A stretch of 64,000 nucleotides of DNA from an uncultured Verrucomicrobiae bacterium (GTDB lineage Bacteria; Verrucomicrobiota; Verrucomicrobiia; Limisphaerales; DASXHY01). Under the pieces are notes generated by a model, which ran no database searches, was not told the DNA's origin, and saw only the letters and a list, made by a program, of their open reading frames with translations. Shown one piece after another: positions 42,414 to 63,001 of this stretch (position 1 is the first letter of the stretch; every line of letters starts with the position of its first letter). The DNA is taken from positions 453,293 through 517,292 of the forward strand of contig OY969416.1 of NCBI GenBank assembly GCA_963699145.1, given 5' to 3'. Made by a program: the position numbers and the translations under genes.

Positions 42414-42492
42414 TGGGGCGACTTTTAGTGAGCGGCGGACTCCGTAGTTGCACGATATTGACGGCCAAACGAGGTTGAAGCAAAATCGCGGC

Positions 42493-43833
42493 ATGGCCCC
42501 CGACGGAAAACCAAAATCCGCGCTTTTGCTTTGTATTCAGGGTCCCGACGCCGGCAAGCGTATCTCGGTCTCGGAACAGCCAGCCACCATTGGCCGGACG
42601 AGTGCGTGCGAAATTGCGAGCGACGATCCGGAAGTGGGTCAACAGCATCTGACGCTTCTACTCGAAGGCGAAAAAGTAACCTTCAACACTTCACCAGACT
42701 GCCTGACGTTCCTGGATGGACAGCGTCTTGCCAAGGGAAACATCAACCCGGGGCAACAATTGCGCATTGGCCGGTCGCTCTGGCAAATCCAGGCTGGCGC
42801 CGCCGCTGAGGTGGCCGGCGCCAAAGGGGATCTCTATTCGTTTCTCGGCGGACTGGGAGATCGGATCAGCGAAGTGGCCGGAGGTGAGAAAATCGAAGGA
42901 TTCAAGATTTCAGAGATGTTTTCCGAAATCTGGCGTAAACGCACGGATGAAGACATGGAGAGCTATTTCGCGGTCGGCACGCCGTGCAACACGCCCAAAC
43001 TCACGGAGGTCGACCCGAGCTGGCCAAAACCCTGGTTTTTCTTTAAGACGTTCATTCTGGCCGTTTTCGTTTATTGGGCATTCGTCTTCGCCTATGACCA
43101 GTTTAAGAATGACAACCTTCTGCCCGGCCTGTTGGTCATGGGCTCTTTCGTGATGCCAACGACGTTGCTGATTCTGTTTTTCGAAATCAACGTCTTGCGC
43201 AATGTGCCACTCTATCAGGTTCTGAAACTGGCCCTTCTGGGTGGCATTCTATCGCTGATTCTTTCCCTGTTTCTTTATCAATGGACCAAGCTGGGCGGCA
43301 CCGACAACTGGTTCGGGGCGCTGGGCGTCGGACTGGTGGAAGAAACCGGCAAGGCCGCCGCCCTGTTGCTGGTTTTGAATAAATTAAAATATCGATGGAT
43401 CCTCAATGGCATGCTGTTCGGGGCCGCCATCGGGGCGGGTTTCGCCGGTTTCGAGTCCGCGGGCTACGCCTATCGTTACGGGCTGGACGTGATAACCACC
43501 CGCGGCGCGCTGGCGATTTGCGGCGGCCACGTCCTGTGGACCGCCCTGGTCGGCGGGGCTTTATGGCGCGTGCGGGGAGATCAGAAATTTGAGTGGCGAA
43601 TGTTGTCGGACCCTCGCTTCCTGCGAGTCTTCGGTTTGGCGGTGGCCATGCACATGGTTTGGGATTCTCCATTGGATCTACCCCTCCACCTGAAAAGCAT
43701 CGCGCTCGGCTTCGTAGTTTGGGTCGCGTTGCTGAGTTACATCCAGACCGGACTGCGCCAGATTCGCGCCGCGCAAACCGCCGGCGCCACCGAATTCTTC
43801 AAACGCGAGAAGGAATTGCTGGCACAGGCATAG
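42493..43833 (+). CDS. FHA-domain PrsW-family intramembrane glutamic protease
   Basis: FHA-like TIGR...D..V...H; PrsW motifs VEETGK, GFAGFES, GHVLWT, MHMVWD; multiple TM helices. Confidence 0.85.
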   Translation: MAPDGKPKSALLLCIQGPDAGKRISVSEQPATIGRTSACEIASDDPEVGQQHLTLLLEGEKVTFNTSPDCLTFLDGQRLAKGNINPGQQLRIGRSLWQIQAGAAAEVAGAKGDLYSFLGGLGDRISEVAGGEKIEGFKISEMFSEIWRKRTDEDMESYFAVGTPCNTPKLTEVDPSWPKPWFFFKTFILAVFVYWAFVFAYDQFKNDNLLPGLLVMGSFVMPTTLLILFFEINVLRNVPLYQVLKLALLGGILSLILSLFLYQWTKLGGTDNWFGALGVGLVEETGKAAALLLVLNKLKYRWILNGMLFGAAIGAGFAGFESAGYAYRYGLDVITTRGALAICGGHVLWTALVGGALWRVRGDQKFEWRMLSDPRFLRVFGLAVAMHMVWDSPLDLPLHLKSIALGFVVWVALLSYIQTGLRQIRAAQTAGATEFFKREKELLAQA

Positions 43834-46778: not shown

Positions 46779-47720
46779 ATGCCCTGGACCCGCAAACATC
46801 TGCTCGACATCGAATCGCTCACGGCGGAGGAAATCTCGACCGTGCTCGACACCGCGCGCGCGTTCAAGGCCGTCGGCGAGCGCGCCATCAAAAAAGTTCC
46901 CGCGCTGCGCGGCAAAACCGTGGTGAACCTCTTCGTCGAGCCTTCCACCCGCACGCGCATCAGTTTCGAATTGGCCGAACAACGGCTCTCGGCGGATGTG
47001 ATTAATTTTTCCACGGAAGCGTCTTCGTTCAAGAAAGGCGAAACGCTCAAGGACACCGCGCTGAACCTGCAGGCGTTGAACGCGGATTTCATCGTCATTC
47101 GCCACAGCGCCTCCGGCGCGTCCCATTTTCTTTCGCGCGTGCTCGACGCGAGCGTCATCAATGCCGGCGACGGCGCGCACGAGCATCCCACGCAGGCGTT
47201 ACTGGACGCGTTCACCATCCGCGAGCGGAAGGGAAAGATTGAAGGGCTGAACGTCACGATTCTCGGCGATATTCTTTACAGCCGCGTGGCGCGCTCGAAT
47301 ATTTGGGCGCTGACCAAACTCGGCGCGAAGGTCACGCTCTGCGGGCCATCCACCCTGGTGCCGCGCGTGTTCGAGCAGATGGGTTGCCGCGTCACCTACA
47401 ACGTGGAAGAGGCGATTCGCGATGCGGATATCATCAATCTCCTGCGCATCCAGCACGAGCGCCAGCGCAAGACGATGTTCCCGAGCATCAACGAATACAC
47501 CACGCTCTTCGGCCTCAACAAGGCGCGCCTCGAGAAAACCAAACCCGACGCGCTTATCATGCATCCGGGTCCCATCAATCGCGGCGTGGAGATCGACAGC
47601 GAAATCGCGGACGGCGATCGCTCCTTGATTCTGGACCAGGTCACCAACGGCCTCGCGGTCCGCATGGCCGTGTTATTCCTCGTCAATGGCGGCAAAGGCC
47701 CGCAGGAAATCGCCGCGTAG
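46779..47720 (+). CDS. pyrB: Aspartate carbamoyltransferase catalytic subunit
   Basis: [38 protein letters not shown]. Confidence 0.97.
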
Positions 47721-47841: not shown

Positions 47842-50800
47842 TCACTTCTCCGGCACATCAATCACATCCCCATCGCGCAGCCAGAGATCGGCCTGAGTGG
47901 GATTCGTGCAATCAATGGTCCACTCCATTTTCTTTTTTGTTTCCGGATCGATGCGCGTGACTTTCACGCGGGACAAATCGGAGGAGACGCGGACCAATTT
48001 TGAATTATCCAGCACCGAGCGAAGCATGAAGGAGGCGTGTGCAACTTCAAGCCTATCATTCTCTGCGGGAGTGGAGGTGGATTGTACCGTAAATTCGGGC
48101 TTGAGTTGCAATGTCGTACGAACGCCCTTTACCGTAACGGTCACCTGCCGAGCGAGGCAGTTCGTCAAAGCCGTTACTGTTGGATTCATTAATCCCGGCC
48201 AATGCTGATCCACCGGATGATCCGACTCAGGGATTTCAACGACATCGCCCCATTCCAGCCACATATCCCGCGAACAGTCGCCGCTGTTTAGGATATCCTC
48301 CACATTGACGTCGATGGCCTTTTGCTTGGCTGATGCCTCCGTGCGCCGGTAAATGATGACGTTCTTAAAATCCGGAAAGTGCAAATCTTTGGCCCATTGA
48401 AGCTCTCGAATAGCCCCGTATCTGTCCCATTCACCGGCCACGTTCTGGCTAAGCAGGCCGTACTCGCCGGCAACCAATTCCAGCAGACTGTAACGATTCC
48501 AGCCATGTGAATCTTTGGTGAAGACCATCATCCCTCCCGTCGAAGCCCGCCGCACTTCGATACGATTGCGTTTGGGCAGATTCGCCAGGCCGCCTGCTTG
48601 TATCAGGAGATCAGCGATGTCCTTCTCGTATGCGCGATTGACGCCAATCCCCGCAGAATTCGCAGTCCACAATCCACCTTCGACAACGCCGTTGATTGAA
48701 CCGCTTTTGGCAAGGTCGAGGGGGGTGTAGCCGGCGTTATTTTGAATGTTCGGATTGGCTTTGTACTCGAGCAACACGGCAACTGCCCCGAGTTGGGCGC
48801 TAATCGTCCGGTGATGCAGGGCGGTGTTTCCGTTGGTATCCTGCAAGTCGGGTTTAGCGCCGGCTTCGAGGAGAAACCGGACATAATTTGTCTCGTAGCC
48901 AGTCATGAGAGGGGTCAATTGACCTTGGAAGCGGGCGTTCACATTCGCTTTGTGGCCAACGAGCCAGCGCCCAACTTCGGGATCAGAAGTGCGGGTTAAA
49001 GGAATATATCCATCTTTGTCTTTCGCACTCGCATCCGCGCCCTTGTCCAATAGCAACCGGACGATCCTTTTGTCTCTTCCTGCCGTTAAAACCTTGCTCA
49101 ACGGCGGACTCCCGTCTCGATCCGGGCTATTGGGATCGGCTCCGTGTTCGAGCAACGTCTGGACGGCGTCGACGCGATTATGCTGGATGGCGGTGAATAG
49201 CGGGACCTCATACTGCCAGTCGCGGTTCGGGTTGGCGCCGCTATCGAGCAACAATTTCACGATGTCATCGTTGCCCTTCCAGATCGCAAAAAGAATCGGC
49301 AGCGATCGCTTCCATTGGTTTTGATCAAAAGGGTCCGGGCCCCTGCCTTCACGGTTAGGATCGGCCTTGTGCTGACACAGCACGCGCGTCGCGCTGGTCC
49401 TGTCGTTCGCCACCGCGAGCATCAATGGAGTCGTGTCCTCGCTGTTTGTAGGATCCACGGTGGCACCGGAGTCCAGTAAAAGGTAGGTCATCTCCGCCTT
49501 GCCCGCCCGCGCCGCCTCGTGCAAAGGCGTATTTCCGGAACGATCTTTTGCGTTAATGTCCGCCTTCGAAGCAAGCAACAATTTGGCAGCGTTCGTATTG
49601 TTTTCCCCGGCCGCAATTTCCAGCGCGGTCCAAGTGTTGGCGTTTCGGGCATTCACCTCAGCGCCATGCTGGATCAGCAGCTTGAGGAGTTCGGTCTGGC
49701 CGTTCTCCACCGCCGCAATCACAGGCCCGCCGACAGACGGCGAATTCACATCCGCCTTATTCGCCAGCAACACCTCGGCGACCGCCATGTAACCGTTCTG
49801 AACCGCCTCAATGAGAGGATTGACGCCGCCACGACCGTTCACATCTGCACCGCGCGAGAGCAACAACTCCACCATGGCTTTGTGGCCGTTCTTCGCCGCC
49901 GCTGACAATGCCACATAAAAATGATTGCGGGTGGAGGCATTCACGTCCGCACCATGATCGAGCAGATATTTCGCCACTACCATCTGGCCTTTAGTCGCAG
50001 CAACGATCAACGGCGTGTTGCCGTCGCCATCCGGCGCATTAATCAAATCCGGGCTGTTTTGGATCATGAGCTGTATCCGCCGGATTTCCTGCTGCTCCTC
50101 GTCGGTCGTTACCGGATTCCCGCCTTCCGCCGCGACGCCTTGCGAGGCCTGCAGTTTCTCTTCGAGCAAAGCCAGACTCGCATTTTCCGCATCGATTCTT
50201 TTCTTCAAATCAACGACACGGGCATTGGTCGGGAGAAACATTTTCGAAAGTTCCTGCAGATCCCCTAGGTCGCTGGCGATTTGCTCGCGGGTCCGCTCAA
50301 TTTGCAAGCGTAACAAGGCGTCGCTTAAAGTCGCCGGCCCATTGCCTCCGCCTGACGCCGATTGCTCCGTTTCGAGTGTGAGCGCGCGCGACATTCCGTC
50401 CAGCCGCTCTTTGATTTTATCCTGCAACGCGGCTTGAATGGCTTTTTCTTTTTTGACTTCCGCTTGCTCCTCGCCATGATCGACTCGCAGCCGAATCAGG
50501 TCGAGTTCGCCCTGGTTATACTGATAAATGAGATTGATGAGCGTGGCGTCCGTTAAGACCGTGGGAGCCACCTGCCTGACCTCGCTGAGCGGCATCGCCT
50601 GAAGTTTTTTCACCCATTCCAACTGCCGCACCTGCTCGGACACGATTGGATTCGACGCCGCTACCGCTGCCCCGCCACCCAACCCCGCCAGATTTTGCCG
50701 GCTCAACGTCACCAGCGTGTCCTGGTCGCTGAACTCTTTAATGATGCGTTGATACTCGGCCGATGCCTCGTTGGTCTTGTTGAGTTTGCGATAGCATTCG

Positions 50801-51012
50801 CCCAGGCGGAAAATGGCCGTGGCGGCCAGTTGTCGATCCTTGTCGAACGCGCTCGCGAGCGATTGGTAATTCGCGATGGCCGCCGGTAAATCGCGATTGG
50901 CTTCCTCCTCAAACAATCCTTTCTGCAACAAGCCGGTAAGGTCATTGGTCGCGCCGCGCGCCACAGTGGCGAGCGCGAGCATCATGGCGAGCATTAAAAA
51001 TTTCAATTTCAT
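47842..51012 (-). CDS. Exported protein: TPR-like N-terminus, coiled-coil module, long ankyrin-repeat array, C-terminal SLBB-like domains
   Basis: Signal MKLKFLMLAMMLALATVARG; AIFRLGECYRKL; many TPL..A...G....V..LL..GADVN repeats; WLEWGDVVEIP and LWLRDGDVIDVP. Confidence 0.88.
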   Translation of the reverse strand: MKLKFLMLAMMLALATVARGATNDLTGLLQKGLFEEEANRDLPAAIANYQSLASAFDKDRQLAATAIFRLGECYRKLNKTNEASAEYQRIIKEFSDQDTLVTLSRQNLAGLGGGAAVAASNPIVSEQVRQLEWVKKLQAMPLSEVRQVAPTVLTDATLINLIYQYNQGELDLIRLRVDHGEEQAEVKKEKAIQAALQDKIKERLDGMSRALTLETEQSASGGGNGPATLSDALLRLQIERTREQIASDLGDLQELSKMFLPTNARVVDLKKRIDAENASLALLEEKLQASQGVAAEGGNPVTTDEEQQEIRRIQLMIQNSPDLINAPDGDGNTPLIVAATKGQMVVAKYLLDHGADVNASTRNHFYVALSAAAKNGHKAMVELLLSRGADVNGRGGVNPLIEAVQNGYMAVAEVLLANKADVNSPSVGGPVIAAVENGQTELLKLLIQHGAEVNARNANTWTALEIAAGENNTNAAKLLLASKADINAKDRSGNTPLHEAARAGKAEMTYLLLDSGATVDPTNSEDTTPLMLAVANDRTSATRVLCQHKADPNREGRGPDPFDQNQWKRSLPILFAIWKGNDDIVKLLLDSGANPNRDWQYEVPLFTAIQHNRVDAVQTLLEHGADPNSPDRDGSPPLSKVLTAGRDKRIVRLLLDKGADASAKDKDGYIPLTRTSDPEVGRWLVGHKANVNARFQGQLTPLMTGYETNYVRFLLEAGAKPDLQDTNGNTALHHRTISAQLGAVAVLLEYKANPNIQNNAGYTPLDLAKSGSINGVVEGGLWTANSAGIGVNRAYEKDIADLLIQAGGLANLPKRNRIEVRRASTGGMMVFTKDSHGWNRYSLLELVAGEYGLLSQNVAGEWDRYGAIRELQWAKDLHFPDFKNVIIYRRTEASAKQKAIDVNVEDILNSGDCSRDMWLEWGDVVEIPESDHPVDQHWPGLMNPTVTALTNCLARQVTVTVKGVRTTLQLKPEFTVQSTSTPAENDRLEVAHASFMLRSVLDNSKLVRVSSDLSRVKVTRIDPETKKKMEWTIDCTNPTQADLWLRDGDVIDVPEK

Positions 51013-51036
51013 AAATTTCTCCACCCTTCGCTCCAC

Positions 51037-51082
51037 ACCTTAAAATCTTTGCCTAACTCAGTTGTCACGCTTTTGCAAAATC
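51037..51082 (-). promoter_or_regulatory. Conserved regulator box plus -10-like hexamer upstream of the ankyrin gene
   Basis: Minus strand gattttgcaaaagcgtgaca-N20-TAAGGT; same architecture at 54632-54677. Confidence 0.7.
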
Positions 51083-51093
51083 GGGCCGGGCTC

Positions 51094-51194
51094 AACGCAG
51101 AGGCGCGGAGAGCGCAAAGATTCGCAGAGAAAAACCAAATCTTGCCGAATTCTTTCCCCTCTGCGCTTCTCCGCGTCCTCCGCGTCTCTGCGTT
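51094..51194. repeat. Inverted 9-10-bp-period arrays
   Basis: aacgcagaggcgcggagagcgcaaaga.. / ..ctccgcgtcctccgcgtctctgcgtt. Confidence 0.82.
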
Positions 51195-51201
51195 AATTTG
51201 G

Positions 51202-51882
51202 TCATACATCCAACCGATACCCCACCCCATGCACCGTCTTGATCCACTTCGGCGCCTCCGGGTCCGCCTCGATTTTTCCCCGCAGGCTGGCGATGTGATT
51301 ATCCACCGTGCGCGTCGTCGGAAACGACGCGTAGCCCCACACCACATCCAGGAAACGCTCGCGCGTGACCGGTTCGCCCGGCGATTCCGCCATCAACCGC
51401 AACATCGCGAATTCTTTCGCCGTCAAATGAATCGCTTTCCTCCCGCGCATTGCCGTCTGCCGCGCGAGATCGATTTCCACATCGCCCAATTTCAGTTTCG
51501 CGAGCGACTTGGCGTGCTTCTGAAACCGGCGCAGCAACGCCCGCACGCGCGCCAGCAATTCCTCCGTGCTGAACGGCTTCACCAGGTAATCATCCGCGCC
51601 CGCGTCCAGCCCGGACACGCGATCTTCGATCTGTCCCTTCGCGGTGAGCATCAGGATCGGCACCGGATTCGCCAGGCGCCGCAATTCCGCGCAGACCTCG
51701 TAGCCATCGAGCTTCGGCATCATCACATCGAGCAGCACGAGATCGGGCTTTTCCTCCAGCGCGCGTTTCAACCCGCTCTCGCCATCCGCGGCCGTGATGG
51801 CGCGATACCCTTCCGTCTCGATAACGTCCTTCAACGCGGTGCGCATCGGCGTTTCGTCTTCGATGATCAAAATTCTCGGCAT
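51202..51882 (-). CDS. OmpR/PhoB-family response regulator
   Basis: ILIIEDE, LLDVMMPKLDG, GADDYLVKPF, TRTVDNHIASLR.KIE, TVHGVGY. Confidence 0.95.
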   Translation of the reverse strand: MPRILIIEDETPMRTALKDVIETEGYRAITAADGESGLKRALEEKPDLVLLDVMMPKLDGYEVCAELRRLANPVPILMLTAKGQIEDRVSGLDAGADDYLVKPFSTEELLARVRALLRRFQKHAKSLAKLKLGDVEIDLARQTAMRGRKAIHLTAKEFAMLRLMAESPGEPVTRERFLDVVWGYASFPTTRTVDNHIASLRGKIEADPEAPKWIKTVHGVGYRLDV

Positions 51883-51924
51883 AGCTTTTAACCGTGGATG
51901 CGCGCAGAGGCACGCAGAGGCAAA

Positions 51925-52003
51925 GGAGCGCGGGCTTTAGCCCGCTTCAGCTCACGCGCGCCTGCTGCACAATTTTGGGCTGAAGCGTGATCAACTCCAC
52001 GCT
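51925..52003. repeat. REP-like element (same family as 59861-59964)
   Basis: ggagcgcgggctttagcccgcttcagc ... gctgaagcg; related ggagcacggcgttcacgccgcttcagc ... gttgaagcg at 59861. Confidence 0.65.
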
Positions 52004-52020
52004 GCCCGTTTCGATTCGTC

Positions 52021-54587
52021 TTATCTGCGTTCATCTGCGTTCATCTGCGGTTTAATAGTCACCGGCAACACAATCGTAAACCGGCTTCCTTCCCCAATGT
52101 TGCTGCGCACGGTGACGTCGCCACCGTGCGCCGCAACGATATGCCTCACAATGCTGAGGCCGATCCCCACCCCCTGCGTCTCCCGGCGCAGCTCAGAGCC
52201 GAGCCGGTAAAATCGCTCAAAAATTTTCTCGTGCTCCGCCGGCGGAATGCCCGGGCCGTGATCCTCCACATAAAGTAGGACAGGCCTCCTGCCTGTCTCT
52301 GAAATTTCTTTTTGAAGCATTGCGTCCGGAGTGCCGCCTTGAATATCAGAGACAGGCGGGACGCCTGTCCTACAGTCCGCATCCAATCCAATCGTCACGG
52401 CCTGTCCCTTGGCGGAATGCTTGATGGCATTATCAATCAGGTTCACCAACGCCTGTTGGATGGCGCGCCCGTCGATTTCCAATTCGATGTTGGATGTTGG
52501 ATGTTGGATGTTCCCGCCTTCGCTGCGCTCCGGCGCGGCAAGCGATGTTTCTAATCTGAGTTGAACCCCTTTCTCCTCCGCGTACGGCTCCATCAACTTC
52601 ACCGTTTCGCGGGTGAGCGCGAGCAAGTCCGTGGGCTCGAATTCATATTGCTTGCGGCCCTGTTCAATCCGCGAAAAATCCAAAACGTTCTCAATGAGCG
52701 ACGACAGCCGCCGGCATTCCTGCACGATGAAGCGGAAATATTCGCTCTGCTTCGCGCCCCCCGCGACCTTGCCGCGCTCCAGGCTCTCCGCCATCAAACG
52801 CACGGAAGCTATCGGCGCGCGCAACTCGTGCGACACACTGGAGACGAAATTGGACTTCTGTTCATTCAATGATTGCTGCCGAATCAAGGAACGGCGCAAA
52901 ATAATCGCCGACGCCAGGCCCGCCAGCAACGCGCCGATGATGAGAGCGGAAAACAAAAATTGCCGGCGCTGCACCGCGCGATAATACGTCTCAGGATCCT
53001 GCAACTGGACGATCAAGCTGATGGGGAGATTCGCAGAATGCAGTTGCTGCATATCACCAGATGCGCGTCCTGCCGCGACGGCAAACGCGTTGTTCAAAGT
53101 CCGCGGTGACCACCCGCCAGACAATAAAAGCATTTTCCCTTCAATCACAACCCTGATGACAAAATCATGATGACGATCCAACTCCTGCCAGCGATTCGAA
53201 AGCTGCTGCAAAAGCCATTCGTACCTAATGATTGCGTAAATCGTTTCGTCAGTCTTTTCCATCGCTCCCGCGGGCCAACCAGCCGGCGGAGTTTGCTTCA
53301 CAGCCAGCCACGATTCCGGCCCTTCGCCCCAAAAAACCTCCGGCCAAGTGTTCGTGCCCATCTGCGCCACCGCTTCACCGTAAAATTGCCTTGCTTCTTC
53401 AGAGCGATCCCAGAGATCGAAAAGCGTGTTGGTCGAGAGCGGCGGTGTCGCCGCGCTTATCAGGGCGGGCGCAATCCGCCGCAACCGCTGAATCGCCTCC
53501 TCGGTAATAGGTGACGCCGGGCCGTTTTGCGCGAGCATGGAAACGACAAATTGCGGATTGCGTCGCCAGTCGTCGGGCAGCGCTTCGGGATTGTCTTTGG
53601 CCAAATCGAGAATTTTCAAAACCGCCAGCGGCATCAATCCGACTCCGGATTCCGAAAGCTCCTCCCCCCCAAAGTGAAGCCGTCAAAAACATCGTTGTAA
53701 GCCGCGATGGCGCCCGGCACATCACCGGATTTTTCCACGGACGCCGCCCGCCGACTCAATGCAATTGGCCGAAAACGGCTGTCGGCAATCCCCTCATAAA
53801 AATCCGCCATCGGCTGAGACCCCGTGTGCCGGCGCCCGCCGAGAAATGCCAGGTAAAGATCCGCCGCCCGCTTCCATTCACCGGCGGCAAAAGCGTTTTC
53901 CGCCTCGTTCCACTGCGACAGTTTGTTTGATTTCAAGTTGCTGAAATCCCTCGCCGTCAGCGGAGCCGGTTGCGGCGGCCAGACCCACGGTCGCGGTTGA
54001 ACCAGGTCACGGTTGCGATTCACCGCGATGATGTTTTGCCCTTTGGTCACCCCGTAACCGTTGGTTTCGAACCGAACAATTTTCAAATCATCTTCCGCTG
54101 AGGACATGACGGCGGAGGCGATTTCATCGGCGCGAGCCTTGGCCTCCTGCCGTGCCAAACGGCGATCCGAATTCAGCGTCCAAACCGCGAGCACACCCAG
54201 GACCACTAGCGGCGCGAGCACGACGACGAGCGGCCAGAGAAGTCGGGGAAATTTCAACAGAGCAATCGTCCGGGGTTCTTCAACCGAAACGTTGGAACGC
54301 TGCCGATACAGCTCGCGGCAAGTGAATGCCACCGCCAACGCAATGCTGGCAAGCGACAAGATTTGCATCCAACCGAAGTGACCAGATCGCGAATGGAGAG
54401 AGGTGAAAACAACAGCTAGAGCGGTGATCGGCAACCAAATTACAGTGAAAATTTGGATGCGGTATTTAAACCGCAGCGGTCTCCTGCTCCGCATCATGCC
54501 CACCCGCGCCAGCATTGCTACCAGAAGGATGGCCACAAAAAGCATTGCCACCAAAACGAGCCCCGCCAAGTGTGAGTTCAAACTCAT
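52021..54587 (-). pseudogene. Membrane sensor histidine kinase split at a G7 run (53664-53670) into ORFs 53634..54587 and 52021..53637; kinase half carries in-frame repeat insertions
   Basis: N-half has TM helices and a periplasmic region; C-half has a TM, H-box FVSSVSHELRAP, N-box NLIDNAIKHS, VEDHGPGI, GVGIGLSIV; one extra G joins the frames as FTLGGEELSESGVGLMPLA. Confidence 0.8.
52275..52373. repeat. 99-bp REP-like palindrome in frame inside the kinase ATPase domain
   Basis: Terminal IR gtaggacaggc/gcctgtcctac; inner IR gcctgtctctga/tcagagacaggc. Confidence 0.88.
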
Positions 54588-54631
54588 CTTCCGGCGCCAG
54601 CTTGGCGTTTGCGTTCCAATTGCACAAGGGC

Positions 54632-54677
54632 ACGCTAATCCGAGCGCGCCTCGCAATTGTCACGGTTTTGCAAAATC
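54632..54677 (-). promoter_or_regulatory. Conserved regulator box plus -10-like hexamer upstream of the kinase gene
   Basis: Minus strand gattttgcaaaaccgtgaca-N20-TAGCGT. Confidence 0.7.
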
Positions 54678-54687
54678 CTCCAATGCA

Positions 54688-57600
54688 TCACTCCGCGACC
54701 TGACCGGTCTTTTGCGCTTCTGCGAAGTTTTTCCTCAAGGTATCGATGGACGAAAGTTCGATCGCCAGTTCCGCATCCCACCCCATCATAATCCCATCCA
54801 TCCGCTCATCGATTTTCTGCCGAAGCTCTTTTATCACGCCCTCCTCACTTTCAAAGTTCGTGTGTTGCGCGGGAAAACTCGAGCGGGCCTTGGCAAATAA
54901 ATTTTCGTAAGAGTCCAAATTCTCCGTCAGGGCTTTGAGTTGTACGTCGGTAGAAACTTTCGGCAGTGTCTGCTTGAAATCTTCCCGGCTCATCGACTTC
55001 AATTTGTCATAAAGTGTTTTCTTCTGGTTGTATTCCGCCTCTTTCTGCACGAGCAAGGCCGAGAGTTCTTTCAGCCTGTCTGCGTTGATCGCAACCGTAT
55101 TCGTCCCGAAATTCGCCGGACGTAATTGAGCATCTGCGACCAGATTTTTCTCCAGATCGCGAAAGACCCCGTTCTTTGGATCAATGATCGCCGCCGCATG
55201 CACCATCGCCAGCGCATCCGCTTTGCGACCTGATTTCACCAGAAAGTCCGCATAGCGAAACACCACTTCAGGCGAGGAAGGGCAAATGACGAAGGCCTGC
55301 TTGAACGCTAAATCAGCCGCCCGCGACAGCTTTTGTTTTTCCGTATCGCTCTTCGCCACATATTCCGAGGGCATCTGAACCATGCCGAACCCGAGCCGTG
55401 ACATATAAACACCCGCGATGGAACTCCGCCACTTCGAAAACATTTTCGGCGCGTAAGCATCGGAAACAAATTCGGGATCGCCCGTGAACCCATCCAGATT
55501 TTTGCGCCCGTAAACCTTCGTCGCAAAATCAATCACCGTTTCCAGGGATGTGTCCGGCGTCAACCACTTGCCCAGCCAGCCATCCACGTGGCTCTGCCAG
55601 TAATCCAGATCTTTTTGAATGACGTCATCCGGCAATTGTGCCACCGGCTCGCGATTGATTTTCATGATCAACCCATTCGGCTCGAGGTGCGGATACATCC
55701 AATCGAGCGGAAAGCTTTCCTCCACGTAAAAATCGCGATTGGGATTTTTGTCGAAGATAAGTTTCGCCACCCGCGCATTGATGGCCATGACGGCGACCTG
55801 GCCATTGGCCTGCACCTGGCCGTTGGTGTCCACTTTCACGTCTTCTCCGGGCTGCAACTTCTTTTCCGCAATCCGTTTTTTCGCGTCTGCGGAATAATCC
55901 GCAAACGCTTTCTGCACGTCGTCGGTGCTGGGCATGTAAATCACCTTGTCCGCAGGCCACGAATTTGCCGCGGCGGAATTATCATTGGTCGCAATTGTTT
56001 TTTGCACACGAGCCAGCGCCCCCTTGATGTTCGAATTCAAATCCTCCACCGCCTTGTCCGCCGCTATGCGCGCCGCATCGTCGTCCGGCTTGCTCATCTC
56101 GAGCGAAAGCGCCTTTTGCTCCGCCACCCGCAACTGCCGGTCGAGCTTCGACAATTCCTGATCCACGTGCCGGGCTGCTCCCAGTTGGGCCAGCGTGCGC
56201 CGTTCTTCACCGTACATCTTCCGCAGATACTCCTCATACGTGCCGTCGGCGAGTGGATTTTGCGAAATGGTATAGAACGGGTCCGCGTCCACGTGCGATT
56301 TGGAAAATGCCGTCGGCAAACCGCGCCCGGGATCCGTCCCGCCAAAATAAATCGCACCCGCCGGGATGAAATCAATGATGCCGCGCGCCGCCTCCTGGGT
56401 GTATTTCGAATCACACATCGCGAATTGATCATAAACCAGTCCGAGTTCCAGCATCGGTTGCCAGTAACTCGTCCGATACGCCGGGCGCTCGTCCTGTGCA
56501 CCAGCACGTTGATACTGAGGATGGTGCTCCTTGAAATCTGCAAACATGTTCGTGACCGTTTGGAAATCTCCCTGCTTGGCGGCGTCAAAATACTTCTGGA
56601 ATTGTGGGACAATGGTTTCACCCGCTGCCGCCGCCAACATCCTGGCTTGCGCCTCTTTTTCCATCGCGAAGTTTTCGATCTGCGTCAGCGTTTCTTTACT
56701 GACCGAACTGGCCCGGTCGTTGTCCGCCGCATTCGTTTTGTAGCCGCCGATGTAGAGAACCACCGCCGCGGTCGAAATCAAAATTCCCACCAGCCCGGCC
56801 GGCCGCGATTGCCGCGCGCGCGAAACATCCACGATCGCCGTGACGCGTTGCTCCAGGTTCGAACTCCGCGCCATCGCAATTCCCGCCGCCTGCGGCGCGC
56901 GCCGAAACGTCGTCGCGATGTCCACCAGGTGCCCCGCGTACTCCGACGCCTTGCAGCCGCCGTTCAGCACCAAATCATCGCACGCGCGCTCGCGCTCGAC
57001 GCGCATTTGCCGCGCCGCAATCCATGCCAGCGGATTGAACCAATACAGCGCGCACACGAATCGCGTAATGCTTTGCGTGAGGCAATCCCGCCGTTTCACA
57101 TGCGCCAGTTCGTGCAGCAAAACAATGCGTCGCCGCTCGGCCGGCCATTGCTCCGCTTCCACCGGCATCAACACCTTTGGCCGCAGCCATCCCCACGTCA
57201 GCGGCATCACGTTGATGCGCGCTTGCCAGAGCGCGACTCGCCGCCGCAGGCCGAGCAGCTCGGAAGTTTCCGCGAGCAGCGCAGTCCATTCAGCCGTGTT
57301 CAATGCGCCCGCATTTCCCGCGATTTTTCCCAGTTGAATTCGCCCAACCATCGGATAGAGCAAAACGAGCCCTGCGCCCAATGCCCAAATTCCAAAACCG
57401 AATGCAACCCAATTGCGCCTCACCCGCGCTTTGAACAATTGCCGCCCGCTCGCGGGCGCCGCTCGCACCGCTGAACGCTCCGCCCGAGCAGCTTCGGCGG
57501 ATGCCGGCGCCGGTTTCGCCGGTCCCAGTTCCAGTGACAACGCAATTTCATTTCCGGAAACGTGTCCGCCCGAAACCGTCCAAAGCGGGCGCGGAGTCGT

Positions 57601-57804
57601 CGGCAGCACAAACGGAAGCAGTGGCAATAAAAGCAATCCGGCGATGCCCAAAAACCAAATCAAATGCCGCGTGGCCGCCGCCGCCCGCCGCCACGCCAGG
57701 CACAGCCCGCCCACAAACGCGAGCACCACAAAACTTTTCACCAGCGCATCCAGCCACACCGTGGCGAGCCACGGATTCAAGTTCGATTCCATCCAGGCGT
57801 TCAT
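54688..57804 (-). CDS. BlaR1/MecR1-like M56 metallopeptidase with a large, non-penicillin-binding C-terminal sensor region
   Basis: AAATRHLIW, MPLTWG..RP.V.MP, LLHELAHVKRRD, YWFNPL.W, ERERACDDLVL. Confidence 0.9.
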   Translation of the reverse strand: MNAWMESNLNPWLATVWLDALVKSFVVLAFVGGLCLAWRRAAAATRHLIWFLGIAGLLLLPLLPFVLPTTPRPLWTVSGGHVSGNEIALSLELGPAKPAPASAEAARAERSAVRAAPASGRQLFKARVRRNWVAFGFGIWALGAGLVLLYPMVGRIQLGKIAGNAGALNTAEWTALLAETSELLGLRRRVALWQARINVMPLTWGWLRPKVLMPVEAEQWPAERRRIVLLHELAHVKRRDCLTQSITRFVCALYWFNPLAWIAARQMRVERERACDDLVLNGGCKASEYAGHLVDIATTFRRAPQAAGIAMARSSNLEQRVTAIVDVSRARQSRPAGLVGILISTAAVVLYIGGYKTNAADNDRASSVSKETLTQIENFAMEKEAQARMLAAAAGETIVPQFQKYFDAAKQGDFQTVTNMFADFKEHHPQYQRAGAQDERPAYRTSYWQPMLELGLVYDQFAMCDSKYTQEAARGIIDFIPAGAIYFGGTDPGRGLPTAFSKSHVDADPFYTISQNPLADGTYEEYLRKMYGEERRTLAQLGAARHVDQELSKLDRQLRVAEQKALSLEMSKPDDDAARIAADKAVEDLNSNIKGALARVQKTIATNDNSAAANSWPADKVIYMPSTDDVQKAFADYSADAKKRIAEKKLQPGEDVKVDTNGQVQANGQVAVMAINARVAKLIFDKNPNRDFYVEESFPLDWMYPHLEPNGLIMKINREPVAQLPDDVIQKDLDYWQSHVDGWLGKWLTPDTSLETVIDFATKVYGRKNLDGFTGDPEFVSDAYAPKMFSKWRSSIAGVYMSRLGFGMVQMPSEYVAKSDTEKQKLSRAADLAFKQAFVICPSSPEVVFRYADFLVKSGRKADALAMVHAAAIIDPKNGVFRDLEKNLVADAQLRPANFGTNTVAINADRLKELSALLVQKEAEYNQKKTLYDKLKSMSREDFKQTLPKVSTDVQLKALTENLDSYENLFAKARSSFPAQHTNFESEEGVIKELRQKIDERMDGIMMGWDAELAIELSSIDTLRKNFAEAQKTGQVAE

Positions 57805-57805
57805 T

Positions 57806-58189
57806 TTAACGGCCCTCCTTTTTGGCTTGTTTGATCATCTCCTGCAGCTTGTTCAATTCCGCATCGGAAATTTCCGCATCGGAATTTTCCAGTAACGCCG
57901 CCATCGCCTCCGAAATCGAGCCCTTGAAAAAAGTGGAGACCACCCGCCGCAACGCCGATTTGCTCGCCACCTCGCGCGAGGCCCGCGGCAAATAGACATA
58001 ACGCGCGCCATCCCGATGATGTTTCGCGTGCCCTTTATCCTCCAGAATGCGCAACAAAGCCCGCACGGCGGAATAGCTGGGCGGATTCGGCAGCGCGGCC
58101 AAAACTTCGGCCGCCGTGGCCTGGCCGCGCGCATGCAGCACATCCATGATTTGTCGCTCGCGACGGCTGAGGTGAGTTTCGGTGTTCAT
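57806..58189 (-). CDS. BlaI/MecI/CopY-family repressor
   Basis: LSRRERQIMDVL, YSAVRALLRILEDKG, FFKGS; abuts the M56 gene. Confidence 0.92.
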   Translation of the reverse strand: MNTETHLSRRERQIMDVLHARGQATAAEVLAALPNPPSYSAVRALLRILEDKGHAKHHRDGARYVYLPRASREVASKSALRRVVSTFFKGSISEAMAALLENSDAEISDAELNKLQEMIKQAKKEGR

Positions 58190-58194
58190 TGGAA

Positions 58195-58253
58195 TGCTAA
58201 AAAATTAGCAGACGTGTTCGCGGCGTCAACAAAAAAGTGCTAAAAAATTACCA
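58195..58253 (-). promoter_or_regulatory. Two palindromic operators overlapping or flanking the blaI promoter
   Basis: TGCTAA-aaaa-TTAGCA at 58195-58210 and TGCTAA-aaaa-TTACCA at 58238-58253; minus strand TTGACG-N16-TAATTT between them. Confidence 0.75.
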
Positions 58254-58302: not shown

Positions 58303-59169
58303 CTATCTCCGCGACCCGATGATGCAGGCGTGCCGGGCTCGCGTTGGGATGGCCGGACCGTTCAAAGCATTATCCTGTTTTCCCGTCGCAACTGTCTGGC
58401 AATCGTCGATCTCGAATCCGCCCTGTTCAAAAAGCCCCGCCAACTCCTCTTCGGTGAGCGCATAACCGATCAACCGTTGCACATAGATACTCGCACGCGC
58501 AAGAATGCCGGCCCAGTCGGCTTTTGGGATGGAATCATTCGCCCGAAGTTTTCCTTCCAACGCTTCGCAAAATTCCCGCCCCTGTTGTTCAGAAAATTTT
58601 GTTTCCGCTCCCGACGGCGCGGGCCGCACGCGATTCACCAGGAACACCTTTCCGCCGGGGACGAGCGAGCGCGACCATCGCCGCAGCAGTTCCGCCCTGC
58701 GTGTCGGGGGAAATTGACTCAGGAAACCGTGGCTGCAAATGACGTCGAAAGGAGTTTCAAAACGATGCTGAAAAATGTCGGCCTGGATCGTTTCAATCTG
58801 CACTCCAGCCTGCTCCGCATACCAGCGATTGAAATACAGCGGAGTCTCGCATAGATCCGCCACCGTGATCTTTGCCGTCAAACCATTTTCCGAACACGCT
58901 GGAAGAACGTGGTCGAGAATCGCATAATCCGCCGAGCCGGAAATCAACACCCGCACCGGCCCGCGCGGAAGCCGCGCGAAAGCGTTGCGAAAAAAATCCG
59001 CTTGTTGCTCCGGCGTCGCCGCAAGGCCGAGCAGGCGCAAATCCTGCCACAGGCCGTGATACCACGAGCAATCTTCCCCCTGCGCCGGGCCTTTCCGGCA
59101 CAGTTGTGGCGCCAGCCGCCGGGCCAGCGCCGCGCCCTGCGCGAACATTTCATGAGATGGCGAAGGCAT
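58303..59169 (-). CDS. Class I SAM-dependent methyltransferase
   Basis: RVLISGSAD, ITVADLC, ADIF....FDVI, LVPGG. Confidence 0.75.
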   Translation of the reverse strand: MPSPSHEMFAQGAALARRLAPQLCRKGPAQGEDCSWYHGLWQDLRLLGLAATPEQQADFFRNAFARLPRGPVRVLISGSADYAILDHVLPACSENGLTAKITVADLCETPLYFNRWYAEQAGVQIETIQADIFQHRFETPFDVICSHGFLSQFPPTRRAELLRRWSRSLVPGGKVFLVNRVRPAPSGAETKFSEQQGREFCEALEGKLRANDSIPKADWAGILARASIYVQRLIGYALTEEELAGLFEQGGFEIDDCQTVATGKQDNALNGPAIPTRARHACIIGSRR

Positions 59170-59759
59170 TATATTTTCCGGCAGACCAATTCTCCCCGGC
59201 CAATCGGCACCACCACGGCATCCACTCTCTCATCGGCCAACGCGCGCTGGATCATCGGCCGCAGCGCCTCCTCGTGGCTGGTCACATTATCCGCGGCCAA
59301 TATGCCGCCCGGAACCAGCTTGGGAACGATCGCCTCATAGCAAGGCGTGTAAGTGTCCTTGTCGGCATCGAGAAAACAAAACGCGATATTTTTCAGATTC
59401 GCGACCTGTTGCAACGCGTCGCCGTGAACGAAGTGGATGAAATTCTCCATGCCGGTGAGGCGGAATGTTTCGCGGGCGAGCGCCGCCTTCTCGGGCAAAA
59501 TTTCAAACGTGGTCAATTTGCGCCCGGACAATCGGCACGCCATCGCCAGCCAAAGCGTGGAATACCCGGCGCTGGTGCCGATCTCAATGCAGTCGCCGGG
59601 CGGCGCCGACGCCGCCAGGATGGCCAGCAATCGGCCCACTTCCGGCGTGACTTGCTTGAGACGTTTGGCGAGGGGCGTTCCGTCAGCCCGGTCGCGCGCA
59701 TCCGCCTCTTCCAGGAATTTCATCCGGCGCTGAACGGCTTCAGAAATCTGGTGGAACAT
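59169..59759 (-). CDS. O-methyltransferase (COMT/CCoAOMT-like)
   Basis: [30 protein letters not shown]. Confidence 0.88.
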
Positions 59760-60011
59760 AGAACGTAAAATATCACACGTACCAAGTGTCCGATGGAACT
59801 GTCACGTTTTTAATCGCCGCCCCACGCACGCAGGCGCAACCTGGCACACCCGCCATTTCAGGAGCACGGCGTTCACGCCGCTTCAGCGCCCGCATCGAAT
59901 CGCTTTGGAATAATCCGGAGTCTCTCTTGCCGGTAGAGTTGAAGCGGGATAAATCCCACCCTCCAATGCGCGTGCCCGGTTACCCCGCCACGCAACACCC
60001 GCGACGCGCCT

Positions 60012-60827
60012 CTATTTGAAATATTGATAAAGCCCTTCCGCCCGATAACGCCGCCCCGCCACTTTCTGCGGGTCGCTGGAAGCCGTGACGCCGCCCGTGG
60101 TTTTATTGGCATCCAGCAGGACGGGTTTTCCTTCGTGAATCACGTAATCGAATTTGCCGTAATCAAACTTCATGGCCCTGGCCATTTTCATGATTTCCGG
60201 ATGCGGCTCGACTCGCTCCGAGCTGATCTGTGTCGAACCGTTGACGATCGGCTCCCTCGAAGCGAAACGCGTGCACGTCGCGCGATCTCCCAGAAACAGC
60301 ATCGCGCGCATGAAATAAATCCCGTCTTGAAACTCCGGCTGAAATTTTTCAACGACGACATTCGGGTCGTTGAAAAGCCGGGGATGCACCGCGTCCGGGC
60401 TGTCGTAAACCTGGTAGTCCAATGGAGAACCAAAATAGGAACTCGAGACGCCGCGCGGATCCCACGGCTGCCCCAACGCGCGCTCCGGTGTGCCCGCGAA
60501 ATTGTAGTTGGATTTGACGATCACTTTTCCCTGGTAACCGTCTCCCGCTTTCACCAGCGATTGGCTGATGGTGGATTTCCGGATATCCCGGACCTCGCCG
60601 TTGAGCACAATCGGGAAGCGCCGCGCAAAATCAAGATACTCCTGCGGCACCACCGTCAAGTCCACATGCACAATCACGAGATCCGCCGGAACAAATTCCT
60701 CCGTGCCAAAAATAAAAACGACTTCGTGCCCATCCTCCCGCCAGAATTCAGCGTAATGATGAATGAGATAATTCATCTGCTGCCCCCGCTGTTTTTGATG
60801 GAACAGAACGGCAATTTTGCGCGTCAT
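60012..60827 (-). CDS. ATP-grasp-like protein
   Basis: VIVKS, VVEKF, YGKFDY...PVLLDANKT pattern resembling RimK-type ATP-grasp folds. Confidence 0.6.
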   Translation of the reverse strand: MTRKIAVLFHQKQRGQQMNYLIHHYAEFWREDGHEVVFIFGTEEFVPADLVIVHVDLTVVPQEYLDFARRFPIVLNGEVRDIRKSTISQSLVKAGDGYQGKVIVKSNYNFAGTPERALGQPWDPRGVSSSYFGSPLDYQVYDSPDAVHPRLFNDPNVVVEKFQPEFQDGIYFMRAMLFLGDRATCTRFASREPIVNGSTQISSERVEPHPEIMKMARAMKFDYGKFDYVIHEGKPVLLDANKTTGGVTASSDPQKVAGRRYRAEGLYQYFK

Positions 60828-60966
60828 CACCGCAGGTTCCAAAATCACACCAGACGAGGACAAGAACAAACATCAGGAAACCCTCCGTGTGGACCGGAGC
60901 GCGAGTTGTCTTCGGGGAATTCTCTGCCGGATAAAACCGCAAACTGCGTTCCCAGAATGCCTTGAA

Positions 60967-61013
60967 TTAGAATTATTCCAAATCTTGACAAGGACAGGGA
61001 GGAGCCATAAGTT
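60967..61013 (+). promoter_or_regulatory. Per/Fur-type 7-1-7 box next to a sigma70 promoter
   Basis: TTAGAAT-t-ATTCCAA (60967-60981); TTGACA (60985)-N17-TAAGTT. Confidence 0.7.
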
Positions 61014-61022
61014 AGCCCAGGA

Positions 61023-61463
61023 ATGTCGCGAGTCGAACACAAAAAGTTGGATGAACATTTGAGCCGGCAGCTCTCCACGAGCGGCTTTCGGTTCACGCCG
61101 CAGCGTCAGCACGTCTATGATGTGCTGATCGAGGAGCGCGATCATCCCACGGCCGAGGAAGTCTTCATCCGCGCCAAGCGCGAGATGCCCGATATTTCCA
61201 TGGCGACGGTTTACAACTGCCTGGATGCCCTGGTGCAATCCGGCATGGCGCGCCAGGTGAACGTGGACCGCGGCGCGACCCGTTTTTGCCCGAACATGCG
61301 CGAGCATTGCCACTTTTATTGCGACACTTGCGCAAAAGTGTTCGATATTGATTTGCCCAGCGAGGGACCGGAAGGCATCACTTTGCCCAAGGGATTTAAA
61401 GCCGCACGTTTTGAGATTGCGATCCACGGCCTTTGCGCCAAGTGCGGCAGTCCCATTAAATAA
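61023..61463 (+). CDS. Fur-family (PerR-like) transcriptional regulator
   Basis: RFTPQR, HPTAEEV, SMATVYN, HCHFYCDTC, CAKC. Confidence 0.92.
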   Translation: MSRVEHKKLDEHLSRQLSTSGFRFTPQRQHVYDVLIEERDHPTAEEVFIRAKREMPDISMATVYNCLDALVQSGMARQVNVDRGATRFCPNMREHCHFYCDTCAKVFDIDLPSEGPEGITLPKGFKAARFEIAIHGLCAKCGSPIK

Positions 61464-61546
61464 AGATAACCGGTTAAATGAGTTAAATCCGCGAAGAGAC
61501 CCATTTAACTCGTTTAACCCATTTAACGGATTTAACCGATTTAACG
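61455..61546. repeat. Inverted nonamer arrays in the fur-sufB spacer
   Basis: ggttaaatgagttaaat / ccatttaac tcgtttaac ccatttaac ggatttaac cgatttaac. Confidence 0.85.
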
Positions 61547-61552
61547 AACAGC

Positions 61553-63001
61553 ATGAGCACGGCAACAGAGACAATTGAAGGTCTAGTCCAGCAGGAATAC
61601 AAATACGGATTTGTCACGGACGTCGAAACCGAGTCCGCGCCGCCCGGCTTGAACGAGGACATCATCCGGCTGATCTCGCACAAGAAAAAAGAGCCGGAAT
61701 GGCTGCTCGAATGGCGCCTCAAGGCGTTTCGTCACTGGCTGACCATGAAGGAGCCGAAGTGGCAGTTCGTGAAATATCCGCCGATCAATTTCCAGGACAT
61801 CACGTATTACTCCGCGCCGAAGCAAAAAACCGACGGCCCGAAAAGCCTCGATGAAGTCGATCCCAAGCTGCTCGAGACCTACGAGAAACTCGGCATCCCG
61901 CTGCGCGAACGCGGACGGCTCGCCGGCGTGGCGGTGGATGCGGTGTTTGATAGCGTATCGGTCGGCACCACCTATCGCGAAACGCTCGCCAAGCAGGGCA
62001 TTATCTTCTGCTCCATGAGCGAAGCCGTGCAGGAGCATCCCGATCTCGTGCGCAAATATCTCGGCCTGGTAGTGCCGTATACGGATAATTATTACGCGGC
62101 GCTGAACTCCGCGGTCTTCACCGACGGCTCGTTTTGCTACATCCCCAAGGGCGTCCGTTGCCCGATGGAACTCTCGACTTACTTCCGCATCAACGCGGCC
62201 AAGTCCGGCCAATTCGAGCGCACCCTCATCATCGCGGACGAAAGCGCGCAGGTGAGTTACCTCGAAGGTTGCACCGCGCCGATGCGCGATGAAAATCAAT
62301 TGCACGCGGCCGTCGTCGAACTCATCGCGCTCGACAACGCGCAAATCAAATATTCCACCGTGCAAAACTGGTATCCCGGCGATGCGCAGGGACGCGGCGG
62401 CATCTATAATTTCGTGACCAAACGGGGTTTGTGCCGCGGGCGGAAATCCAAGATTTGCTGGACGCAGGTCGAGACCGGCTCGGCCATCACCTGGAAATAT
62501 CCGAGCTGCATTTTGCAGGGCGACGATTCCGTGGGCGAATTTTATTCCGTCGCCGTCGTGAACAACTTCCAGCAAGCCGATACCGGCACGAAGATGGTGC
62601 ACATCGGCAAAAACACGCGCAGCACGATCGTCTCCAAAGGCATTTCGGCGGGCCGCGGCCAAAATAGTTATCGCGGACTCGTCAAAATCCAGAAGACCGC
62701 CGCGAACGCGCGCAATTTCTCGCAATGCGATTCGATGCTTATCGGCGACCGCTGCGGCGCGCACACGTTCCCTTACATCGAAGTGAAAAACACGACCGCG
62801 TCGGTGGAACATGAAGCGACCACGTCCAAAATCGGCGAGGACCAGATATTCTACTGCAACCAGCGCGGGCTTTCCACGCAGGACGCCGTGAACATGATCG
62901 TGAACGGCTTCTGCAAGGAAGTCTTCAAGGAACTCCCGATGGAATTCGCCGTCGAAGCCCAAAAGCTGCTCGGCGTGAGCCTCGAAGGCAGCGTAGGATA
63001 A
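61553..63001 (+). CDS. sufB: Fe-S assembly protein SufB
   Basis: [47 protein letters not shown]. Confidence 0.97.

Follow-up and report, generated by a model that had tools for sequence, protein, structure and literature searches.

Two adjacent, plausibly separately wired envelope-signalling modules between fur-suf and pyrB in a soil Verrucomicrobium

We analysed a five-gene cluster at positions 47842-58253 of a 64,000-nucleotide stretch of DNA (hereafter the window) that forms part of the 5.92 Mb single-contig genome of an uncultured soil Verrucomicrobium (GenBank assembly GCA_963699145.1, contig OY969416.1, positions 453,293 to 517,292). The cluster encodes a BlaI/MecI-type repressor (blaI), a BlaR1-type M56 membrane protease, a histidine kinase, a response regulator and an exported ankyrin-repeat protein, and all five genes lie on the minus strand, co-oriented as an initial annotation of this DNA had described. 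That annotation read the cluster as two linked regulatory layers. Our results modestly favour a looser arrangement, in which two adjacent envelope-signalling modules, one composed of blaI and the M56 gene (module A) and the other of the kinase, regulator and ankyrin genes (module B, or the trio), are wired separately and do not form one obligate five-gene unit.

Gene families were assigned by Pfam, with a listing threshold of E ≤ 0.01 for proteins of the window. The blaI gene (57806-58189) encodes a winged-helix repressor of 127 amino acids (aa) that matches PF03965 over profile positions 1-115 of 115 (E 1.2e-27), and its end is separated by one base from the start, at 57804, of the M56 gene (54688-57804), whose 1038-aa product matches PF05569 over residues 20-324 (E 1.5e-32). 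The kinase gene (52021-54587, with a putative start at 54587) specifies HisKA and HATPase_c domains, and the 226-aa regulator (51202-51882) carries Response_reg and Trans_reg_C, a combination that places the pair among OmpR/PhoB-type two-component systems. The open reading frame (ORF) of the exported TPR/ankyrin protein (47842-51036) spans 1064 aa.

The trio is conserved as a group. Kinase, regulator and ankyrin genes occurred together in 12 of 13 loci fetched around relatives' matches to the ankyrin C-terminus, the other locus (L075) holding regulator fragments only, and they were also together in L021, L022, L035 and L040, as well as in L027, where the ankyrin gene is short. A gene for the extracytoplasmic sensor domain that the M56 protein carries lies directly upstream of the trio, and in the same direction as the kinase, in seven distinct loci: four have the M56-fused form with blaI (the window, L021, L022 and L035) and three a free-standing form (L027, L040 and L070). 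Seven trio loci (L072, L073, L074, L078, L079, L080 and L082) lack a sensor gene over at least 5 kb of upstream DNA, and the M56 sensor was found without the trio in three of the six loci that have 10 kb of downstream DNA. Neighbourhood conservation, which the initial annotation had named as a check, holds for the trio; the company of the sensor is optional, and since each module exists without the other, any coupling between them would be optional as well.

The two modules also carry different candidate cis-elements. At the blaI promoter, two palindromes enclose a -35-like TTGAC read from the sequence (58225..58229, minus strand). The distal one, a BlaI-type operator candidate of the form GCTAA-N4-TTAGC with one mismatch (58239..58252), lies upstream of the TTGAC; the proximal one (58196..58209) is an exact GCTAA-N4-TTAGC located 7 nt upstream of the blaI ATG, and within it lies a -10-like TAATTT, 16 nt downstream of the TTGAC. 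The exact form has one copy in 5.92 Mb, compared to 3.9 expected from base composition, and copies with at most one mismatch and an A/T spacer number seven in the genome, two of them at the blaI promoter. The dual-palindrome layout recurred in all nine other M56-type loci, eight of which have TTGAC between the palindromes and one (L033) CTTGC instead. A promoter/terminator scan returned no more sites than were found in shuffles, and none in the intergenic gaps.

Module B is marked by a 21-bp box with the consensus ATTTTGCAAAAnnRTGACAAC, which on the opposite strand reads as a direct repeat, TTGTCA-N5-TTGCAA. One copy, ATTTTGCAAAACCGTGACAAT (54656..54676, minus strand), lies in the 31 bp that separate the M56 stop from the kinase and is a candidate response-regulator site that would serve autoregulation; the other, ATTTTGCAAAAGCGTGACAAC (51061..51081, minus strand), lies 49 nt upstream of the ankyrin ATG and is a second candidate site for the regulator. 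These two, before the kinase and before the ankyrin gene, are the only occurrences with at most one mismatch in 5.92 Mb. Among 17 distinct trio loci (L071 duplicates L040 and was counted once), 16 have at least one box and 11 have both, and the box is absent from all three M56 loci that lack the trio. Two observations lead us to infer that the regulator binds the box: no other DNA-binding protein is conserved along with the box, and the box contains the TTGTCA-N5-TTGCAA repeat. A sigma-54 reading of the box, made by eye, was rejected: the -24 element lacks its GG, the spacing deviates by one and the box is on the wrong strand for the genes.

Between the regulator stop and the box of the ankyrin gene lies a long, near-perfect hairpin of ~45 bp (51082..51201, minus strand). 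Its folding energy is -65.8 kcal/mol (z -6.7; none of 200 shuffles folded as well), and it is likely a terminator or an insulator. The hairpin is built from GCAGAGACGCGGAG-like units, and the genome contains 38 copies of its arm motif with at most two mismatches, mostly in facing pairs, which identifies it as a member of a dispersed palindromic (REP-like) repeat family. Units related to this repeat sit in the same intergenic position in several relatives. In genome G006 (L072:5039-5330), the box and the ankyrin gene start are present twice, separated by ~290 bp that include a palindromic repeat, in what looks like a local duplication.

The presence of two regulatory layers, each with its own conserved cis-element, thus agrees with the initial annotation; the linkage that it assumed between them is conjectural, given that each layer also occurs alone. 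An integrated five-gene pathway, in which the M56 sensor and the kinase would respond to the same cue, in series or together, and the ankyrin protein would be their common output or partner in reporting surface glycan or glycoprotein assembly, seems to us unlikely, if worth keeping in sight. It would account for the seven loci with a sensor gene directly upstream of the kinase, across which sensor identity is only ~34-54%, for the 31-bp distance between the M56 stop and the kinase region, where the scan placed no terminator-like site, and for the co-polymerase-type coil that the M56 tail and the ankyrin protein have in common in this genome; it is also consistent with the derivation of all parts from glycan or protein export machinery. 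It does not account for the trio loci without a sensor, the M56 loci without a trio or the separate cis-elements, and the shared coil is specific to one lineage, other cluster-linked M56 proteins ending in a SecDF P1-head domain. Moreover, many of these genomes have the whole arrangement flanked by fur-sufB on one side and pyrB on the other, and with both modules in a single syntenic slot their adjacency may be inherited and is no proof of a shared pathway.

The M56 protein joins a protease to a sensor of distinct ancestry. Its membrane zinc-protease module, defined by PF05569, hydrophobic segments and the catalytic motif, comprises residues 1-355 (56740..57804, minus strand), with HELAH (HEXXH) at residues 231-235 and the last membrane helix, placed from hydrophobic segments, at ~336-354. 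The sensor domain, delimited by homology and an AlphaFold2 model, spans residues 370-895 (55120..56697, minus strand) and, as it follows the last helix, should face the periplasm. The Pfam scan assigned no penicillin-binding or transpeptidase family to the protein at E ≤ 0.01, in agreement with the initial annotation; a TMEM260-type domain takes up that region. A beta-lactam-sensing resistance switch of the BlaI/BlaR1 kind, suggested by the repressor and protease families, is accordingly extremely improbable: the sensor is a different, all-new domain rather than a penicillin-binding or transpeptidase domain, and neither the cluster nor its flanks contain a beta-lactamase or penicillin-binding protein gene.

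To place the sensor domain, we compared M56 residues 370-900 with 1.84 billion cluster representatives, which returned 1308 proteins at E ≤ 0.001 and 406 at E ≤ 1e-30. Of 150 listed matches, 40 picked to span the range of lengths were scanned with Pfam. Thirteen of these, 1110-1506 aa long, begin with a PF11028 module (TMEM260-like, formerly DUF2723), and nine are M56 fusions, three of which end in a SecDF P1-head domain. Single matches combine the sensor domain with TIR (P0029), with the MacB_PCD periplasmic core (P0100), or carry it between ankyrin repeats and a Kelch propeller (P0063), and the remainder are short or TPR-only proteins. We considered P0063 as a fusion that would link the M56 sensor to the ankyrin protein, and discarded it: its resemblance to the ankyrin protein is generic ankyrin similarity and does not extend to the TPR/coil N-terminus.

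In a pairwise comparison with the PF11028 protein P0076, M56 residues 484-879 align to its residues 836-1227, with 41% identity over 422 columns (E 4e-85). The initial annotation had proposed a resemblance to the soluble region of DUF2723/TMEM260-like glycosyltransferases, and the four motifs that it quoted (residues 485-494, 513-523, 668-676 and 692-707) all fall inside this alignment. The Pfam scan found no PF11028 match on the M56 protein itself. The genome's own TMEM260-like enzyme (L001:541-4611, 1356 aa) contains the sensor domain, as do three shorter paralogues. Free-standing copies of the domain begin with signal peptides or lipoboxes, which also indicates a periplasmic location. Together, these similarities make a strong sequence-based case for a TMEM260-like soluble domain in the M56 sensor. 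One free-standing sensor gene, that of the same-genus genome G003 (L070:5249-6616), changes reading frame close to its TPR end, so that a different frame encodes the final 67 residues of the alignment.

An AlphaFold2 model of the sensor built from a 58-row alignment reached a pLDDT of 92.1 and a pTM of 0.89 (a fold made without an alignment was unusable, with a pLDDT of 45). The modelled parts are a helical N-part, an alpha/beta core, an inserted coiled-coil hairpin (residues 533-606; window 55987-56208, minus strand) and a TPR-like end (residues 719-894). Foldseek comparison of the model with the PDB gave nothing at E ≤ 0.001, a wide VIA fold search found counterparts for no part but the TPR end and the coiled-coil hairpin (Z ≤ 9.9), and a sensor profile run against PDB sequences returned TPR proteins only.

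M56-sensor fusions, full or partial, were found in three of 40 relatives searched (G008, G022 and G038), most of which showed the enzyme and free-standing copies but no such fusion. A tree was built of 158 C-terminal sensor subdomains; in it, M56-fused and cluster-linked copies fall outside the 32-leaf clade that contains the enzyme-linked ones, and the seven cluster-linked copies belong to a 59-leaf group of 27 M56-fused and 25 free-standing copies. This mixture would fit repeated fusion or fission, and thereby an alternative that we regard as quite improbable, namely that the sensor is an accessory periplasmic co-sensor of the kinase, with the free-standing lipoprotein as the basic form and the BlaI/M56 fusion as a later addition that tethers the binding domain to a second output. 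A free-standing lipoprotein form does occupy this position in the same-genus genomes G003 and G004. However, the 59-leaf group has a support of 0.14 (0.78 for the enclosing 66-leaf clade), many free-standing copies stand beside fur-sufB without a kinase (L023, L024, L030 and others), and the periplasmic domain of the kinase is poorly conserved (18-26% identity). A complex prediction that paired the L021 sensor domain with the periplasmic domain of the L021 kinase returned no answer (score 0.00) and weighs neither way.

The kinase reads as two ORFs (53634-54656 and 52021-53637) whose frames overlap around a run of seven Gs at 53664-53670. Relatives have a single kinase ORF of 719-838 aa, and both pieces in the window are collinear with the L022 kinase. 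We compared contigs of four soil-metagenome runs with the region; three runs cover the G run, and all three covering contigs, one of them otherwise identical to the window, have one extra base there, with eight Gs giving one continuous frame. These three lines of evidence indicate that the kinase is one gene, and the split is most likely a homopolymer assembly error or a strain variant. Judged by hydrophobic segments and Pfam, the protein has four N-terminal membrane helices, a periplasmic region of ~405 aa and a fifth helix, followed by HisKA and HATPase_c. Pfam named no family in the periplasmic region, and the ESM Atlas gave only unnamed clusters for its L021 counterpart. The regulator is 65-92% identical in relatives.

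The C-terminal tail of the M56 protein (residues 897-1033; 54706..55116, minus strand) is a coiled coil that we recognised by homology to the periplasmic coil of Wzc-type co-polymerases. It aligns over 137 aa, at 36% identity (E 4e-24), with residues 217-353 of a 726-aa Wzz+GNVR+P-loop protein whose gene neighbours a Wza-like one in a relative of the same genus. These residues of the co-polymerase are also matched by the ankyrin protein (E 2e-7) and, more strongly, by its L021 orthologue (E 4e-14), and M56 residues 934-1005 match ankyrin residues 144-215 directly (E 6e-5). The initial annotation had noticed that the two proteins share a coiled-coil module without naming it; these matches support its identification as a Wzc-type co-polymerase periplasmic coil, although neither protein has a Pfam match to PF02706 (Wzz) or PF13807 (GNVR). 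In L021, L022 and L035 the M56 tail is a SecDF P1-head domain instead, and the co-polymerase-type tail is thus specific to the lineage of the window.

The ankyrin gene likely starts at the ATG at 51012, internal to the ORF, which is where the database copy (P0153) begins; its product would then have ~1056 aa (47842..51012) and would open with the signal-peptide-like MKLKFLMLAMMLALATVARG. In residues of the full ORF, the protein comprises a signal peptide (9-28), a highly conserved TPR region (30-118), a co-polymerase-like coiled coil (~144-300), ankyrin repeats (~329-800) and two SLBB-like domains (820-940 and 955-1064). The family alignment resolves the C-terminus into two units, each closing with GDV[IV]E[IV]PE. 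When a hidden Markov model of unit 1 was run against 26,865 genome ORFs, the best non-self match was a Wza-like protein (E 0.013), aligned at the end of its SLBB_2 domain. Profile-profile comparison by hhalign with 28 Wza-like C-termini gave a probability of 92.9% for unit 1 (E 3.6e-7) and 95.5% for unit 2 (E 1.3e-8), and the two units matched each other at 96.6%; with the template reversed or an unrelated alignment substituted as controls, the probability remained at or below 0.4%. The top three ESM Atlas clusters for the C-terminus were SLBB (score 0.80), which we take as a lead only. We accept two SLBB-like domains at the profile level, with moderate confidence: the SLBB-like ending named in the initial annotation is sub-threshold in Pfam and is backed by the profile-profile probabilities of 93-96%. 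The annotation's broader description of a cluster built from glycan-machinery-like parts is likewise supported in all three respects: strongly for the sensor, by the co-polymerase matches for the coil, and moderately for the SLBB-like domains. The TPR/coil/ankyrin/SLBB exported family has 385 matches in the length range searched, and our literature search found no work on periplasmic proteins with ankyrin repeats and SLBB. Elsewhere in the genome (G000:C1:4570229-4574836), two adjacent Wza-like genes each encode Poly_export and two SLBB domains, and the first has an N-terminal extension of ~440 aa.

The reading that we favour, two separately wired modules, would work as follows. In this group of Verrucomicrobiota, the stretch from the fur-suf operon to pyrB is a variable slot, and both modules lie within it. 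Module A would be a proteolytic switch of the BlaI/BlaR1 type, in which BlaI represses its own promoter through the palindromes upstream of the -35 and over the -10, and in which an M56 protease carries a paralogous TMEM260-like periplasmic domain in place of the penicillin-binding domain, followed in this lineage by a co-polymerase-type coil. By analogy with BlaR1, taking as a model the mechanism given in PMC9834060, binding of a periplasmic ligand to the sensor would activate the zinc protease, BlaI would be cleaved and the promoter would open; domain ancestry suggests an exported protein, a glycan or a lipid-linked sugar as the ligand. Module B would be an autoregulated two-component system, its kinase sensing through the ~400-aa periplasmic domain of no named family and its OmpR-type regulator binding the 21-bp box before the kinase-regulator operon and before the ankyrin gene. 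The exported protein, with TPR, co-polymerase coil, ankyrin repeats and two SLBB-like domains, would be the main, and perhaps the only other, output. Module A could be coupled to module B by read-through across the 31-bp gap or by a shared cue. That the cluster monitors glycan or glycoprotein assembly, as initially proposed, is a suggestion from the ancestry of its domains.

A bolder proposal is that the TMEM260-type soluble domain is a widespread periplasmic recognition module, which would read the O-glycosylation state of proteins, or exported proteins that are yet to be modified, and which has repeatedly been wired into signalling; in that case the locus would keep watch over glycosylation or secretion and adjust an exported ankyrin/SLBB scaffold accordingly. 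Human TMEM260 is described as a protein O-mannosyltransferase whose C-terminal domain is luminal and thought to recognise substrate (PMC10214176). The wirings observed are M56 fusions, with a SecDF P1-head or a co-polymerase coil behind the domain, fusions to TIR and MacB-type domains, and a free lipoprotein beside a kinase. We consider this proposal speculative and doubtful.

Several observations weigh against the two-module reading or its parts. For both cis-elements, the proposed role is deduced from position, conservation and rarity; a consensus promoter scan did not list the blaI promoter, and the absence of the exact operator elsewhere in the genome leaves module A without an evident output gene besides itself. 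The genes downstream of M56 loci that lack the trio differ from one another (an M48 peptidase, MlaA on the opposite strand, PGI). In the sensor, the helical N-part (370-483) is absent from glycosyltransferases, and all 18 enzyme-linked copies in the tree lie within the one 32-leaf clade (support 0.92), which makes the M56 sensor a distant paralogue of the enzyme's domain and not a recent copy. The alpha/beta core has no solved counterpart in the fold and profile searches, which barely probed the core, and so offers no structural pointer to the ligand. The kinase is out of frame in this assembly. At the ankyrin C-terminus, the Pfam SLBB match (PF10531/PF22461) is below threshold at 17.2 bits against a cut-off of 27, only three of 31 ankyrin homologues have SLBB and two of 31 SLBB_2 at E ≤ 0.05, and PDB sequences yielded no match to a profile of the region at E ≤ 10. 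Overall, we regard the anatomy of the locus as solid and its function as inferred.

The cluster is flanked by pyrB (46779-47720), which is convergent with it, and by other housekeeping genes: two methyltransferase genes, a Fur-family gene and sufB. The methyltransferase genes, together with an ORF of 285 aa that has no Pfam family, lie at 58303-60869, between the fur-suf genes and blaI; in L021, blaI follows directly after the fur-suf genes, and the 58303-60869 genes look like an insertion into a variable slot. The Fur-family regulator gene (61023-61463, plus strand; PF01475, E 1.2e-22) is located just upstream of sufB. An ORF on the opposite strand (60873-61574, minus; 233 aa), which has conserved 'homologues' in many loci, was dismissed as a gene: it is the shadow of this Fur-family gene. 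Farther away, 42448-43833 (plus strand) encodes a 461-aa fusion of an FHA/YscD-type cytoplasmic domain and a PrsW-family intramembrane protease. Titled relatives of the locus are mostly metagenome-assembled genomes of Verrucomicrobiota, several labelled Limisphaerales or subdivision 3. Close relatives of the locus are also carried by several contigs (L034, L035, L037, L039, L041 and L043) whose titles name other phyla (Methylomirabilota, Bifidobacteriaceae, Acidoferrum, Limnocylindria). On L034 and L035, the two of these on which sufB was found, it is 86% identical to that of the window; these contigs may be mis-binned.

By sequence, one large domain family, with no Pfam model on its core, is common to GT-C glycosyltransferases and at least four kinds of signalling or transport proteins. 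Our search found no literature on bacterial TMEM260/DUF2723 homologues, judged by titles and abstract openings, the DUF2723 work that it found being on the human enzyme, and the sensor domain is a possible way in to what the bacterial enzymes recognise. The locus also offers another design for non-antibiotic BlaI/BlaR switches. Its dual operator and two-copy 21-bp box are sharply defined elements whose regulons are directly testable, and exported TPR/coil/ankyrin/SLBB proteins constitute an unstudied family.

Among known systems, module B invites comparison with two-component systems that have a dedicated exported or accessory protein under their own control, such as CpxAR with CpxP. The resemblance lies in a kinase-regulator pair that appears to be autoregulated and in a neighbouring gene for an exported protein with the same upstream box. 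The ankyrin protein is far larger than CpxP and of other make-up, and no evidence indicates feedback on the kinase. With Wza/Wzc-type export, the cluster shares the periplasmic coil of Wzz+GNVR+P-loop proteins, matched by the M56 tail and the ankyrin coil, and the SLBB_2 domain, matched by the two C-terminal domains of the ankyrin protein in profile-profile comparison. Unlike Wza (OPX) and Wzc (PCP-2a), it has no Poly_export, Wzz, GNVR or Wzc-type kinase domain and no outer-membrane helix barrel, and what it does share is combined with TPR and ankyrin repeats in an exported protein that is soluble.

The M56 sensor resembles the TMEM260-like GT-C enzymes over ~400 residues (484-879) at the 41% identity given above, and both end in TPR-like helices. 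The comparison was with bacterial PF11028 proteins, of whose domain the sensor is a distant paralogue; lacking the GT-C membrane module, the M56 protein is not an enzyme of that family. Module A is closest to BlaI/BlaR1 and MecI/MecR1 (Staphylococcus, Bacillus), CenIR and PvmSR, with which it has in common a repressor gene directly before an M56 protease gene with HEXXH, a promoter with two dyad operators and an outward-facing sensor after the last membrane helix. BlaI/MecI operators are TACA/TGTA dyads, whereas the operator of the window is GCTAA-N4-TTAGC; its sensor is a TMEM260-type soluble domain with a co-polymerase coil and not a penicillin-binding domain, and no resistance gene follows. 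Non-antibiotic systems of this kind are already in print, as the atypical BlaIR systems CenIR of C. difficile (PMC13492132) and PvmSR of P. aeruginosa (10.64898/2026.08.03.742534), and the window holds a further variant of atypical BlaI/BlaR together with an uncharacterised regulon.

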